Origin: Escherichia coli
Lineage (GTDB): Bacteria > Pseudomonadota > Gammaproteobacteria > Enterobacterales > Enterobacteriaceae
Reading direction: 5' to 3' (one strand)
NCBI RefSeq assembly: GCF_030013205.1
Contig: NZ_CP122648.1
Length of the DNA stretch: 64,000 nt
Shown: positions 1 to 6,000 of the stretch, in pieces
How the letters are laid out: each line of letters opens with the position of its first letter
Position numbering within the stretch: position 1 is the first letter of the stretch
Program-made: the position numbers

Positions 1-3000
1 CGCGGTCAAATTATTAAATGGTTCCGTCAATCTTATCTCTTTGGCAGACGATATTTTCCGCTGGTGCCAGGAGAGCGACGATCTGCTCAATCATCACCGC
101 CGCCAGCAGCGGCCAACAGAATTTATCCGTATCCGCTGGGCGCTGGAATATTACCAGGCTGGCGACGCCGATAACGAACAAAATTAATAAAGGACTATCT
201 CATGACGACATTTATTCAGCTTCATTTGTTAACCGCTTACCCTGCTGCCAACCTTAACCGTGATGACACCGGTGCGCCAAAAACTGTGGTACTGGGTGGA
301 GCAACGCGTCTGCGCGTTTCCTCACAAAGTCTGAAACGTGCGTGGCGCACTTCTGCACTTTTTGAACAGGCACTGGCGGGCCATATTGGTATTCGCAGTG
401 GGCGTATTGCGCGTGAGGCGGCAACTATCCTGATTGAGAAAGGCATCGAAGAGAAAAAAGCCATCGAATGGGCGGCAAAAATTGCGGATTATCTTGGGAA
501 AGCTAAAAACGACAAAAAACCAAAAGATCCGCTCACTAACGCCGAAACTGAACAGCTAGTCCATATCAGCCCGGCAGAATTTGACGCCGTAAAAGCGCTG
601 GCCCATCAACTGGCCGAAGAAAAGCGCGCGCCAAAAGAGGAAGATCTCGCTTTGTTACGTAAAGATCGCATGGCGGTAGATATCGCTATGTTTGGTCGTA
701 TGCTGGCGAATAAACCCGAATTTAATGTTGAAGCCGCCTGCCAGGTCGCGCATGCATTTGGTGTCAGTGAAACGATTGTCGAAGATGATTTTTTCACCGC
801 CGTTGATGATTTGCGCCAGGCTTCTGAAGATGCCGGTGCCGGGCATCTTGGTGAAACCGGATTCGGTTCTGCGCTGTTCTACACCTATATCTGCATCGAT
901 AAAGATCTGCTGGTCGAAAACCTCGGCGGTGACGAAGCGTTAGCTAATCAGACCTTGCGCGCCTTTACGGAAGCCGCACTTAAAGTCTCCCCAACCGGCA
1001 AACAGAACAGCTTTGCCAGCCGTGCCTACGCCTCCTGGGCGCTGGCAGAAAAAGGCACTGAACAACCACGCTCTCTGGCGGCGGCTTTCTATGAACCCAT
1101 TAATGGCACCCGGCAGTTAGATGTGGCGGTGCAGCGTATTACAACGCTTCGCGAAAATATGAATACGGTCTATGAACAGAAGACCGAATGCGCAAGCTTT
1201 GACGTGATGAACAAACAGGGAAGCATGAAGGACGTGCTGGACTTTATCTGCGCGTAAGGGGCGGCTAATGAGCCAATATTTGATTTTTCAGCTTCATGGG
1301 CCAATGGCATCCTGGGGCGTCGATGCCCCCGGCGAAGTGCGTCATACCCATGAACTGCCTTCGCGCTCAGCATTGCTGGGGCTGCTGGCTGCCGGGGTAG
1401 GGATTCGGCGTGATGATACCGAACGATTAAACGCGTTTAACCGCCACTATTCACTGGTGGTTTGCGCCAGCCGTAACCCGCGCTGGGCACGGGATTATCA
1501 CACGGTCCAGATGCCAAAAGAGGTGCGTAAAGCGCGTTATTTCAGCCGTCGCGAAGAGTTGAGCGCCCCTGATCTTCTGAGCGCGATTATCTCCCGGCGC
1601 GACTACTACACCGATGCCTGGTGGATGGTGGCGGTGGCAACAACCCCCGATGCGCCTTACAGGCTTGAACAGTTGCAGGACGGTTTACGTCATCCGGTTT
1701 TTCCGCTTTATCTGGGGCGAAAAAGTCATCCGCTGGCGTTACCACTTGCGCCGTTACTGCTCGAAGGCAACGCGTCTGATGTCTTACGTAACGCATACCA
1801 ACAGTATCAGGATAGTTTCCGCGAACTGAAAGTCTCACTCCCGAAACTTCAGGATGAATGCTGGTGGGAAGGGGAACACGACGGCCTGGTCGCGAGCAAA
1901 ATATTACGTCGCCGGGATGTTCCTTTAAATCGTCAGCAGTGGCTGTTTGGGGAACGCACCATCAATCAGGGGCCGTGGCTCAGCAAGGAGGAACCATGTA
2001 CCTCTCAAGAATAACCTTACATACCGGCCAGCTTTCGCCTGCGCAGTTGCTGCATCTGGTGGATCGCGGTGAATATGTAATGCATCAGTGGCTGTGGGAT
2101 CTTTTTCCTGGCGGCAAAGAAAGGCAATTTCTTTATCGTCGGGAAGAACTCCAGGGGGCGTTTCGCTTTTTTGTCCTGTCGCAGGAACGCCCGGCGGAAA
2201 GTGATATTTTCACCATCGAATGCCGACCATTTGCGCCAGAGTTGCGTACCGGACAATCCCTTTGTTTCAACCTGCGGGCGAATCCAACAATTTGTAAAGC
2301 GGGCAAACGCCACGACTTGCTGATGGAGGCGAAACGGCAGGTGAGGGGGCAGGTGGAAGGAAGTGATGTCTGGTTGCATCAACAACAGGCTGCGCTGGAC
2401 TGGCTGGCAGCGCAGGGGGAGAGAAGCGGTTTTACACTGCTGGATACTTCGGTTGATGCCTACCGACAACAGCAACTGCGGCGGGAAAACTCCCGGCAAC
2501 TGATCCAGTTCAGTAGCGTGGATTATACGGGGATGCTTACGGTCACCGATCCTGGGTTATTTCTGCAACGTCTCAGTCAGGGGTATGGCAAAAGCCGGGC
2601 GTTCGGTTGTGGTCTGATGCTGATCAAACCCGGAGCAGAGGCGTGACGTTTGTACCGCTGAGCCCGATCCCATTAAAAGATCGCACCTCTATGATCTTCC
2701 TCCAGTACGGTCAAATCGACGTACTGGACGGCGCTTTCGTGTTGATCGACAAAACCGGGATCCGCACGCACATTCCGGTGGGATCGGTCGCCTGCATTAT
2801 GCTCGAACCGGGAACGAGAGTTTCCCACGCGGCGGTGCATCTGGCCGCCACGGTGGGAACACTGCTGGTCTGGGTCGGTGAAGCGGGCGTTCGCGTTTAC
2901 TCTTCCGGACAACCCGGAGGGGCGCGGGCAGATAAATTACTCTACCAGGCAAAGCTGGCTTTAACGGAAGATCTACGCCTGAAGGTGGTGCGTAAAATGT

Positions 3001-6000
3001 ATGAATTACGTTTTCGTGAGCCACCGCCAGCTCGCCGTTCAGTGGAGCAGCTACGTGGAATTGAGGGATCCCGCGTTCGCCAGACGTATGCATTACTGGC
3101 GAAACAATATGGTGTGAAATGGAATGGTCGCAAATACGATCCTAAAGACTGGGAAAAAGGCGATGTTGTGAATCGCTGCATCAGTGCTGCCACATCATGT
3201 CTGTACGGTATTTCTGAAGCGGCAGTATTAGCCGCGGGATATGCGCCCGCTATTGGATTTATCCATAGTGGCAAACCGCTTTCATTTGTTTATGACATAG
3301 CCGATATCATTAAATTTGATTCGGTTGTGCCAAAGGCATTTGAAATAGCAGCGAGGCAACCCGCAGAACCAGATAAAGAAGTCAGGTTGGCCTGTCGTGA
3401 TATTTTCCGTAGCAGTAAGTTAACGGGCAAATTAATTCCGTTAATCGAGGAAGTGCTTGCCGCAGGTGAAATTGAACCACCACAACCCGCGCCGGATATG
3501 TTACCGCCTGCCATCCCTGAACCTGAAACGCTGGGCGATAGCGGTCACCGGGGACGCGGCGGATGAGTATGGTCGTCGTTGTTACAGAAAATGTCTCTCC
3601 GCGCTTACGTGGACGGCTCGCGATCTGGCTCCTGGAAGTGCGTGCCGGTGTTTATGTCGGAGATACGTCCAAACGTATTCGGGAGATGATCTGGCAGCAA
3701 ATCTCTCAACTGGCAGGTTGCGGAAATGTGGTAATGGCCTGGGCGACCAATACCGAGTCGGGTTTTGAATTTCAGACCTGGGGTGAAAATAGACGTATTC
3801 CGGTGGATTTGGATGGGGTGCGTTTGGTTTCTTTTCTTCCTGTTGATAATCAATAAGTTATCTGTTCTTTAAAAATAAGGAAATGTTTTAATTTAGTTGG
3901 TAGATTGTTGATGCGGAATAAATTTGTTTAAAAACAGTTATGTATGCTTAGTGTGTTCCCCGCGCCAGCGGGGATAAACCGCATAATCCCGGCTGGAAAC
4001 ATTGCGGGGGTAAGTGTTCCCCGCGCCAGCGGGGATAAACCGCGACCGATCCCGCTGTTGCAACTTTTATTGAGGTGTTCCCCGCGCCAGCGGGGATAAA
4101 CCGGTGATGAGGAAAAGCTAATAGAATGGCGACGCGTGTTCCCCGCGCCAGCGGGGATAAACCGGTCCACGGTTCGACGCCTACCGCCGCAGCTATGTGT
4201 TCCCCGCGCCAGCGGGGATAAACCGTTGTCGGGCTTGTTCGGCGCGGGTTGTTAACTGTGTTCCCCGCGCCAGCGGGGATAAACCGCCAGTCGAAGATCT
4301 GGACGCGTGGGGAAAAGCGTGTTCCCCGCGTCAGCGGGGATAAACCGGACGCACTGGATGCGATGATGGATATCACTTAGAATTCCCCGCCCCTGCGGTA
4401 GAACTCCCAGCTCTCATTTTCAAACCCATCAAGACGCCTTCGCCAACTCCTTCACCAGAGGTAGCATTATCCGCATAACGTCACGGCAGCGACGTTCTAT
4501 TCTTCCAGGAAGTGCCTTATCAATATGTTGTTGATTATCCAGTCTTACGTCATGCCAGCTATTTCCCGCAGGGAATGCAGCTGTTTTTGCGCGTTGCTGA
4601 TAACCATCCTTATTCCCAAGATTCCAATTTGTTGCTTCTACCGAAAGTACGGCAATACCGGCTTTGTCGAAAACTTCGGCGTCATTACAACAGCCAGTAC
4701 CCTTCGGATAATTTTTATTCAAACCCGGATTGGTCGTTGCGGCAATTCCATGACTACGCGCAATTGCCAGCGCCCTGTCGCGCGTTAATTTCCTTACTGC
4801 TTCAGGGGTTTTTACACCGCTGTTGAAATACAATTTATCGCCAACAATTAAGTTATCGAGATTAATCACCAGCAGCGTATTTTTCTTTTCGGTGTCACTC
4901 ATCCGCTTGAGTAAATTCTCAGCACCTAATTTCCCTTCCTCTTCACCACTGGTCGCCACAAATCGAATACCATACTCGGTAGGCGTATTTTTCAGGCGTT
5001 CTGCCAGTTCCAGCATGACACCTAAACCTGCGGCGTTATCATCCATTCCTTGTAACGTCAGCCCGCCGAGATTGGCATCGGCGTCAGCATCGCTCAGCGG
5101 GGCGTATGTATCCAGATGCGCCATAATGATGATCTGCTGCGGCGCTTTGCCTTCATGAGCGGCAATCACCGTACTTCCCGTCACGTTATGCCAGCTCTTG
5201 CGATTATCGCGGGCGGTATAAATATACCGACTATTAAATGTCCGAATATCACTGCGATAACCCATTTGCTGAAACTGTTGGCGAATATAATCGGCAGATA
5301 ACATTTCTGCAGGAGTTCCGGTCATGCGTCCCGGAAAGAAAGTAGCAATATGTCGTGCCTGAGTATTAGCAAAATCGCCAGGTTTAGGTGACGAGGCGTG
5401 TACGGGGAGAATAAAGCATACGCCGAGCGCCAGGGCAGCGGTACGGTGGCGCAATGCGGAAAACATAGTGAGTCCTTAAATACCATGCAAATTTTTTTAC
5501 CGCCATAGTATGAAACTGCCGCTGCGCTAAAACAATTTCAAATCTTCCTAAACGCCCGAAATCCGGTGCCTTAAGCACTTTTTGATATTAGCTTTGCCAA
5601 ATCGTTATTCCGTTAAGGAACTACTCATTCTAATTGGTAATTTCATTCGTTCTCTTACGCTCCCTATAGTCGAAACATCTGATGGCAAGAAAATAGCGGT
5701 ATTGCAAAGGAACGGTTATGGATCAAATACGACTTACTCACCTGCGGCAACTGGAGGCGGAAAGCATCCACATTATTCGCGAGGTGGCGGCAGAATTCTC
5801 AAATCCGGTGATGCTCTACTCTATCGGTAAAGATTCCAGCGTCATGCTGCATCTGGCGCGCAAGGCGTTTTATCCAGGTACGCTGCCTTTCCCGTTGCTG
5901 CATGTCGATACCGGCTGGAAATTCCGCGAGATGTATGAGTTCCGCGATCGTACGGCTAAAGCCTACGGCTGCGAGCTGCTGGTGCATAAAAACCCGGAAG

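Follow-up and report, generated by a model that had tools for sequence, protein, structure and literature searches.

Does a type I-E CRISPR-Cas locus of Escherichia coli whose Cascade proteins depart from those of K-12 represent a second, rarer lineage with a young array, or a system that has already been described? The window analysed here, a 64,000-nt stretch of E. coli DNA (NZ_CP122648.1), opens with such a locus. Genome comparison revealed that the window matches the chromosome of the porcine E. coli strain ETEC1748 at 100% identity. The RefSeq annotation already carries this exact locus, and gives the order cysH-hok-cas3-casA-casB-...-cas2-CRISPR-iap for ETEC1748, with hok annotated as Hok/Gef. 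Specifically, cas3 (899 aa) and casA (520 aa), which the original prediction had placed outside the window, and the remainder of casB lie intact directly upstream of it. We assign the locus, with a probability of about 0.92, to the chromosomal iap-cysH CRISPR-I of porcine enterotoxigenic E. coli (ETEC), a system of the majority cas-E1 lineage with intact parts and a relic array. The observation of a non-K-12 I-E locus is thus correct and already known: publications from 2014 and again from 2025 describe both E. coli I-E lineages, how common each is, and how the block was replaced in K-12.

The features of the locus are collected in Table 1. Translation of all ORFs detected no internal stops and no frameshifts in the cas genes of the window, and the module is intact within the predicted boundaries. 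All six cas products of the window score above the curated NCBIfam type I-E cut-offs, including the CasB fragment, which reaches 35.7 bits in the profile search against TIGR02548 (cut-off 28.5; full-length CasB from ETEC1748, 105 bits). With the upstream sequence of ETEC1748 included, the full set of eight Cas proteins clears the cut-offs of the curated I-E models, CasA with 607 bits against TIGR02547 and Cas3, which comprises an HD nuclease and a helicase, with 88.9 bits against TIGR01596 and 224.6 bits against TIGR01587. The type I-E signature genes cse1/casA and cse2/casB are present, and casC, casD and casE follow in the required order. The overlapping starts and stops described for the operon are found at three of the five junctions, namely casD/casE (19 nt), casE/cas1 (4 nt, GTGA) and cas1/cas2 (4 nt, ATGA), while casB-casC and casC-casD are separated by gaps of 14 nt and 10 nt. 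The CasE motif YVMHQWLW aligns with YQLHQGLW of K-12, positioning His30 opposite K-12 His20, which we take to be the catalytic histidine. Furthermore, Cas1 residues E141, H208 and D221 are conserved in an alignment to PDB 3nkd. Because all parts are intact, the I-E system of the ETEC1748-type locus looks competent, judged from its sequence.

Table 1. Features of the type I-E locus, in window coordinates
Feature	Coordinates	Strand	Description
Type I-E locus contents	1..4408	+	casB 3′ end, casC, casD, casE, cas1, cas2, leader, array
casB/cse2 3′ end	2..187	+	frame 2, last 61 codons of 178 aa, TAA 185-187
casC/cas7e	202..1257	+	Cascade backbone subunit; intact ORF, 351 aa; TIGR01869 448 bits
casD/cas5e	1268..2014	+	intact ORF, 248 aa, begins MSQYLIFQLHGPMASWG; TIGR01868 157.7 bits
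casE/cas6e	1996..2646	+	pre-crRNA endoribonuclease; 216 aa, begins MYLSRITLHTGQ; TIGR01907 287.8 bits
cas1e	2643..3566	+	spacer integrase; GTG start, 307 aa; TIGR03638 380.9 bits
cas2e	3563..3856	+	97 aa; TIGR01873 128.9 bits
CRISPR leader	3857..3952	+	E1-type counterpart of the K-12 leader; 96 nt, AT-rich, 25% GC
Seven full repeats with S1-S6	3953..4347	+	29-nt GTGTTCCCCGCGCCAGCGGGGATAAACCG, exact 61-nt period
Spacers S1 (3982-4013), S2 (4043-4074)	3982..4074	+	leader-proximal pair; pig ETEC/O139 clade only
Spacer S3	4104..4135	+	sole spacer with an identified target
Spacers S4 (4165-4196), S5 (4226-4257), S6 (4287-4318)	4165..4318	+	old spacers, common to unrelated lineages
Spacer S7	4348..4379	+	species-wide trailer-end anchor, in 4241/5426 genomes
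Degenerate terminal repeat	4380..4408	+	GAATTCCCCGCCCCTGCGGTAGAACTCCC; homologous to the K-12 terminal repeat

Membership in the I-E family suggests how these parts would work together. The leader would drive transcription of the array, and CasE would cleave the repeats at the hairpin base to give 61-nt crRNAs, on which CasA, CasB, CasC, CasD and CasE would assemble into Cascade. Cascade would locate matching protospacers that carry an AAG or ATG PAM and recruit Cas3 for degradation of that DNA, and Cas1-Cas2 would put new spacers in at the leader-repeat junction.

None of the proteins is near-identical to its K-12 counterpart. Consistent with the original prediction, BLASTP places the Cascade proteins far from K-12, with identities of 21-35% (CasA 21%, CasC 30%, CasD 35% over 179 aligned positions, CasE 27%) and no significant alignment between CasB and K-12 CasB. 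Neither Cas3 nor CasA reached the cut-off of its K-12-specific NCBIfam model (NF007248, 420 bits versus 569; NF007247, 100 versus 576), and on these scores and identities membership in the K-12 type (cas-E2) is rejected. The K-12 system (structures 4qyz, 4tvx, 5h9f; Cas1-Cas2 4p6i, 5ds4) shares the subtype, gene order and chromosomal site, a 29-nt repeat equal but for a single base in its 5′-end triplet (GTG versus GAG), the 61-nt period, the leader layout, the conserved Cas1 and Cas2 active sites, and the trailer spacer and terminal repeat, but its CasD and CasE are shorter (224 versus 248 aa and 199 versus 216 aa, respectively).

The lineage is the published majority, described as cas-E1, with an L1 leader and arrangement A (Almendros et al. 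2014, mBio, PMC3903273), and as var. B-8552 (Microorganisms 2025, PMC12736100), with K-12 as the minority replacement. Among the 5426 complete E. coli genomes in our searches, 2628 carry the window variant at 80% query coverage or more, which rules out that other E. coli lack these Cas alleles; the lineage is non-K-12, as proposed, but it is not second by rarity. The locus shares with cas-E1/var. B-8552 the iap-cysH site, the gene order and hok as the neighbour of cas3, fitting arrangement A, and hok/sok is described in all strains but E2 carriers (Almendros 2014, PMC3903273). The gene lengths are likewise those of var. B-8552 (cas3 2700, casA 1563, casB 537, cas7 1056, cas5 747, cas6 651, cas1 924 and cas2 294 bp). 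The identities to K-12 found here (30/35/27/85.5/84% for CasC/CasD/CasE/Cas1/Cas2, CasB unalignable) agree with those published for var. B-8552, namely 29-32% for Cas7/5/6, 84% for Cas1, 86% for Cas2 and none for CasB (PMC12736100, Table 1). The GC content from cas3 to cas2 is 51.5%, versus 46.0% for casA-cas2 of K-12; the published values for E1/B-8552 and the K-12 variant are 53.5% versus 45.6% (48-55% versus 44-51% per gene), and the per-gene GC here agrees with the published table (PMC12736100). Positions 1-4428, leader included, match other E1 carriers, O157:H7 and O104:H4 among them, at 91-97%, and the leader is assigned to L1 by this match and by its difference from the K-12 leader (L2). 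The only difference from cas-E1/var. B-8552 lies in spacer content, the array here containing the S1-S7 set of the pig ETEC clone.

How far the block that differs from K-12 extends is revealed by cas1 and cas2. The claim that Cas1 and Cas2 are close to K-12 holds for the proteins (85.5% and 84% identity, respectively, BLASTP), but synonymous sites are saturated (cas1 pS 0.82; cas2 pS 0.73, dS 2.5), with a dN of 0.13-0.15 and a nucleotide identity of 71-73%. By contrast, the flanking genes are 97-98.5% identical to K-12 at the nucleotide level, with a pS of 0.07-0.10 and a dS of 0.11 for iap and 0.07 for cysD, so that the cas1-cas2 dS exceeds that of iap/cysD more than 20-fold. Saturation in cas1/cas2 against the low values in iap/cysD assigns cas1-cas2 and the leader, together with the Cascade genes, to one foreign block. 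The leader itself retains conserved blocks, with 69 of its 96 nt (~70%) identical to the 105-nt K-12 leader. The seventh repeat (R7), S7 (30/32 identity to the K-12 copy) and the terminal repeat hardly differ from those of K-12, and it is only at this trailer end of the array that K-12-like sequence picks up again.

A module exchange at casE/cas1, by which cas1-cas2 would be inherited in common with K-12 and only cas3 to casE swapped, would account for the sharp contrast between the Cascade proteins and Cas1/Cas2 and for the point at which BLASTN similarity to K-12 begins (~2663, just inside cas1; K-12-type genomes match the window only from cas1 onward, at ~73%). We regard such an exchange as highly improbable, given the saturated cas1 and cas2 beside iap and cysD at a dS of ~0.1, the leaders that differ too, and vertical-level similarity that does not return before R7, S7 and the terminal repeat; in Almendros 2014 (PMC3903273), too, the boundary of the insertion falls within the array. 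The observed difference is instead explained by a foreign I-E variant having taken the place, in the K-12 minority, of everything from cas3 to the leader; cas-E1 is probably ancestral in E. coli. The divergence is the known K-12 replacement and nothing special to the ETEC1748-type strain. The calculation made in this analysis shows that cas1-cas2 are part of the replaced block despite 85% protein identity. K-12 is the atypical E. coli in this respect, and details of its regulation and structure should not be carried over to most strains.

The array is short, as predicted, and comprises seven 32-nt spacers bounded by seven repeats and the degenerate terminal repeat, whereas the RefSeq CRISPR annotation covers only 3953-4347, i.e. 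six spacers. Its regularity is far beyond chance. Six of the seven repeats are identical, and R7 (4319-4347) departs from them by a single C>T change in the loop of the hairpin; the predicted hairpin of 7 bp and -15.2 kcal/mol is the same in R7, and that of the terminal repeat is weak (-6.4 kcal/mol). In the leader, there is a weak match (7/9) to the IHF consensus at -36 to -24, a position with a homologue in K-12.

The spacer search yielded a target for one of the seven spacers. S3 matches 32/32 nt at positions 4274-4305 of L017, within the C-terminal portion of a tail-fibre-assembly gene from an E. coli prophage, with a 5′ ATG at 4271-4273 in the PAM position (n=1 for the PAM test); ATG is a consensus PAM (PMC6568314), and directly next to the prophage lies the icd-ymgK-iraM-ycgX region of E. 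coli. No protospacer for S1 or S2 was found in any collection searched. No self-target was found in the window at up to 8 mismatches, and in the ETEC1748 genome the spacers match only the array itself.

Might the array be short because the system has just begun to acquire spacers? The small number of spacers, the intact adaptation genes with conserved Cas1 catalytic residues, and the restriction of the leader-proximal S1 and S2 to one clade are features that such recent activity would produce, and the original prediction had considered it possible. The history, read from BLAST summaries and 13 arrays out of a much larger set of 2628 carrier genomes, makes this very unlikely. The same seven-spacer array, with S1 first, is fixed in ETEC isolated from pigs in Belgium, South Korea and Japan, and none of the genomes examined has a spacer ahead of S1, nor do close relatives have a new leader-end spacer. 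The relatives ETEC4068, W13-16, ETEC1701 and ETEC6333 differ solely by missing spacers, a pattern of internal loss. Moreover, S3-S7 occur in the same order within 13-20-spacer arrays of unrelated strains, so that the shortness is due to spacer loss; S4-S6 are scattered inside such arrays of AF40, KE55, MEW and CFSAN061763, and S5 is among the spacers common to well over 100 genomes. The array is a small, old, eroded relic. S3-S7 are five old spacers remaining from a longer ancestral array, S1 and S2 were gained before the pig ETEC clone spread internationally, and the array has since been altered by loss only. The seven-spacer array would lend itself to use as a simple marker of this clone.

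An eroding array could also belong to a decaying remnant, a dead system whose genes are intact by chance. Consistent with decay, six of the seven spacers lack a known target, the consensus promoter scan detected no sigma-70 match in the leader, and transcriptional silence has been described for the I-E system of K-12 (PMC12248084). Decay is nonetheless unlikely: the eight cas genes are full length and free of stops, their products score far over the family cut-offs and keep their catalytic residues, and Cas1/Cas2 dN is 0.13-0.15 at saturated dS. In addition, identical Cas protein accessions recur in several independent strains, which argues for purifying selection. As for an intact system with a relic array, the expectation of poor expression, which derives from K-12, may not apply to the cas-E1 locus, since 97 nt separate cas3 from casA here, against 414 nt in K-12. 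That the E1 system is naturally expressed in the pig ETEC clone, with S1 and S2 recording real immunity against a mobile element of the pig gut absent from the public collections searched, seems to us a long shot. On that reading, the 97-nt spacing would leave no positional counterpart of the H-NS/LeuO-controlled promoter region of K-12.

The closest solved structure found for any subunit of the lineage is PDB 9uer chain E ('CRISPR-associated protein Cse4', 351 aa), which aligns without gaps over all of CasC (631 bits, ~83% identity by eye) and is not identical to it. The 9uer chains gave no match to CasA, CasD or CasE, and no full Cascade structure of the lineage was found. Beyond E. coli, the I-E systems of Salmonella enterica and Escherichia albertii are stated in the literature to cluster with cas-E1 and not with K-12 (Almendros 2014, PMC3903273).

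The CRISPR-Cas locus in window bases 1-4408 is an ordinary representative of the majority type I-E lineage of E. coli, annotated and published before; the original observation is confirmed, and its interpretation is partly supported. The genes, leader and array had been described accurately, and the predicted absence of frameshifts is borne out, as all six cas reading frames, including the casB fragment, translate without an internal stop. All six products pass the curated NCBIfam cut-offs for type I-E. His30 of CasE is conserved opposite K-12 His20 in the alignment, and residues E141, H208 and D221 of Cas1 are kept. 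The expected overlap of starts and stops holds for casD/casE (19 nt), casE/cas1 (4 nt) and cas1/cas2 (4 nt), but casB and casC are separated by 14 nt and casC and casD by 10 nt. A 262-aa form of casE, extended upstream from 1858, was rejected, and the ATG at 1996 fits both the family model and RefSeq.

Features of the cas locus and their likeness to K-12 (protein identities, BLASTP against MG1655 proteins; pS and dS, Nei-Gojobori count against K-12)
Feature	Window coordinates	Strand	Description	Basis	Protein identity	Nucleotide identity	pS	dS
CasA					21%			
casB 3′ end	stop 185-187	+	last 61 codons, frame 2	ORF list and direct translation	no significant alignment (CasB)			
casC	202-1257	+	351 aa	ORF list and direct translation	30%			
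casD	1268-2014	+	248 aa	ORF list and direct translation	35%			
casE	1996-2646	+	216 aa	ORF list and direct translation	27%			
cas1	2643-3566	+	GTG start, 307 aa	ORF list and direct translation	85.5%	70.6%	0.82	saturated
cas2	3563-3856	+	97 aa	ORF list and direct translation	84%	72.7%	0.73	2.5
Degenerate terminal repeat	4380-4408		closes array					
iap	4429-5466		convergent gene	ORF list and RefSeq annotation		97.3%	0.10	0.11
cysD						98.5%	0.07	0.07

Window bases 1-10,428 match the chromosome of E. coli ETEC1748, isolated from pig faeces in Belgium, at every base; there the locus runs cysH, hok/gef, cas3 (899 aa), casA (520 aa), casB (178 aa), followed by the window genes, all intact. The cas3 and casA genes are thus present beyond the window, as predicted, and the genome, unlike the window, contains the whole system. 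Cas3 and CasA of ETEC1748 pass the generic I-E/Cas3 models and score under the cut-offs of the K-12-specific NCBIfam models. The cas3-casA gap, which in K-12 we take to be the site of the H-NS/LeuO-controlled Pcas promoter, is 97 nt in this lineage (ETEC1748, upstream of the window, positions 3995-4091 of the extracted region L001) versus 414 nt in K-12, so that the K-12 promoter architecture cannot be taken for granted; the majority lineage may be regulated differently from K-12. A passage in one published account describes the K-12 I-E system as transcriptionally silent (PMC12248084).

In a megablast search, window bases 1-4428 were found at a coverage of at least 80% in 2628 of 5426 complete E. 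coli genomes, O157:H7 and O104:H4 strains included, while K-12-type genomes begin to align only near position 2663, with about 73% identity. The locus had been assigned to a second, non-K-12 I-E lineage; it is indeed non-K-12, but 'second' undersells what is the majority lineage. Almendros et al. (2014) gave the name cas-E1 to the major cluster and cas-E2 to that of K-12, linked each cas variant to a leader of its own (L1 or L2), and recorded hok/sok in every arrangement but E2 (PMC3903273). A 2025 survey calls the same lineage var. B-8552, with gene lengths of 2700, 1563, 537, 1056, 747, 651, 924 and 294 bp (PMC12736100). These lengths equal those here exactly and the published K-12 identities also agree, so that the locus can be placed in the described lineage.

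The prediction that the Cascade proteins lie far from those of K-12 is verified by identities of 21–35% and by a CasB that cannot be aligned; neither near-identity to K-12 nor a frameshift was found. GC content differs as well, at 51.5% here (cas3-cas2) versus 46.0% in K-12 (casA-cas2). CasC and PDB 9uer chain E give a gapless alignment of 351 residues (631 bits); a literature search on this PDB code returned no relevant paper. The structure matches of CasA, CasD and CasE are only K-12, T. fusca and T. thermophilus proteins, with E-values of 1e-10 to 1e-18, and Cas1 matches K-12 Cas1 structures with E = 1e-176.

The leader, directly 3′ of cas2 (96 nt, 25% GC), shares conserved blocks with the K-12 leader (105 nt; 69 identical positions) and contains a weak IHF-like match at −36 to −24, a position homologous to K-12. 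It is followed by seven 29-nt repeats with an exact 61-nt period, six of which are identical, while the seventh (R7) differs by C>T in the loop, with no effect on the predicted hairpin (−15.2 kcal/mol). With the degenerate terminal repeat counted as the end, there are seven 32-nt spacers, from S1 (leader-proximal) to S7 (trailer end). Tandem Repeats Finder reported no repeat in 1-8000, as expected because the unique spacers hold the 61-nt units below its similarity threshold; a separate repeat search recovered the array. Rfam at gathering thresholds gave no match in 1-6000, and a consensus promoter scan gave no sigma-70 match in 3700-4500. The sole terminator-like match in the latter interval was rejected as a repeat hairpin seen on the minus strand, and a minus-strand 142-aa ORF (3948-4376) and other ORFs across the array were rejected as artefacts of repeat translation. 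In the relative ETEC6333, a RefSeq 'hypothetical protein' inside a shortened array unannotated as CRISPR there (1608-1730 of its extracted region, L009) is an annotation artefact. The last ten bases of S6 (4309-4318, GGGGAAAAGC) resemble the repeat 3′ end (GGGGATAAACCG), probably by chance, and owing to this likeness BLAST ran S7 matches on into S6 in thousands of genomes, inflating apparent coverage.

The working of type I-E systems is established from K-12 and T. fusca. By analogy, array transcription would begin in the leader, CasE would cut the transcript into 61-nt crRNAs, Cascade would assemble as CasA1-CasB2-CasC6-CasD1-CasE1, PAM reading by CasA would lead to an R-loop and to Cas3 recruitment, and Cas1-Cas2 with IHF would add new spacers at the leader end. 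Processing of the S7 crRNA may be poor, since the degenerate repeat downstream has a predicted hairpin of only −6.4 kcal/mol.

Cas1 and Cas2, said to be close to K-12, are so as proteins but not at synonymous sites. A breakpoint at the casE/cas1 boundary, leaving cas1-cas2 outside the exchanged block, is argued against by this synonymous saturation, set against dS values of 0.11 in iap and 0.07 in cysD; the protein likeness can be attributed to strong constraint on the integrase (dN of 0.13–0.15 for cas1 and cas2). The saturated sites and the differing leader place cas1-cas2 and the leader in the same exchanged block as Cascade. Similarity to K-12 at the level of vertical descent does not return before the array's trailer end, where near-identity to K-12 is seen in R7, in S7 (30/32) and in the degenerate terminal repeat. 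The single exchanged block suggested by these comparisons is in line with published work, which infers integration of the E2 module inside the array (PMC3903273).

The full S1-S6 set was found by BLAST in 12 complete genomes, all pig ETEC. The same array geometry, with S1 first, is present in K_EC180 (South Korea), EC556 (Japan), and ETEC4070 and ETEC4079 (Belgium), and in none of the genomes examined is S1 preceded by another spacer. S1 and S2 were observed solely in the pig ETEC/O139 clade; S3-S6 recur with order kept and other spacers between in arrays of 13-20 spacers from unrelated isolates of human, gull and food origin; S7 occurs in 4241 of the 5426 genomes, K-12 among them. Relatives' arrays differ by loss only: ETEC4068 lacks S3, W13-16 and ETEC1701 lack S4 and S5, and ETEC6333 lacks S1, S4 and S5. 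The proposal of a possibly recently active array fails on this identity across countries and loss-only variation; the array is old and eroding, and its shortness is due to erosion. The last acquisitions are older than the international spread of the pig ETEC clone.

The proposed comparison of the seven spacers with phage, plasmid and host sequences revealed no BLASTN match at E ≤ 1 in 50,697 phage records and four plasmid matches, all CRISPR arrays, three being chromosomes filed as plasmids. The fourth, NZ_LC542972.1 (pIOMTU792, 293 kb, E. coli), has an array segment with S5 and S7 at array spacing (246815-246967) and is among the plasmids given as bearing CRISPR-Cas components (PMC12736100). 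No spacer has a self-target in the window at up to eight mismatches, and in the ETEC1748 genome the spacers match only the array itself. Among the matches listed for the 5426 E. coli genomes, all are at the CRISPR locus, with no resident protospacer. Scans of IMG/VR in which every sixth position was free to mismatch gave nothing for S1, S2, S4, S5 and S6; metagenome scans gave no match for S1 and S2, and scans of species-representative genomes none for S2 and S3.

One site matches S3 at 32/32 positions, 4274-4305 of the IMG/VR contig UViG_2529293142_000021 (L017), with ATG, a consensus E. coli I-E PAM (PMC6568314), directly 5′. The protospacer occupies a C-terminal stretch of a tail-fibre-assembly gene (phrog_136), with a tail sheath gene (phrog_23) shortly downstream, and on its right the contig is flanked by E. 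coli icd′-ymgK-ymgL-iraM-ycgX (99.5% identity); together these point to a contractile-tailed E. coli prophage abutting the icd region. The target is of the expected kind with a fitting PAM, in a single case (n = 1). The tail-fibre-assembly gene is split (L017 3806-4383) into an N-terminal ORF (3806-4207) and 58 C-terminal codons in another frame (4207-4383), both matching phrog_136, so that the gene containing the protospacer is either frameshifted or subject to programmed frameshifting.

Over the remaining window span, the RefSeq annotation of ETEC1748, from which the pphB, decarboxylase, HigB and yqaA features are taken, lists ordinary core genes up to yqaA. Downstream of rpoS, toward pphB and mutS, 15608-18429 encodes a MarR-type regulator and hydroxyarylic acid decarboxylase subunits B, C and D, which we take to be the known polymorphic mutS-rpoS region absent from K-12. 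The serine/threonine phosphatase 2 gene pphB is split by IS1 (fragments 18470-18997 and 19772-19903; transposase 19019-19716), and a HigB-family toxin and HTH antitoxin pair (37723-38450) is inserted between hycI and ascB. A tRNA-Ser gene followed by three identical tRNA-Arg(ACG) genes occupies 61928-62700, with an orphan tRNA-Arg 3′ fragment (AATCCTCCCGGATGCACCA, 62358-62376) between the second and third tRNA-Arg in a 188-nt duplicated unit; K-12 presumably has four tRNA-Arg genes at this site, so one copy may be partly deleted here. The annotation lists yqaA (63660-64000) as a pseudogene with a frameshift.
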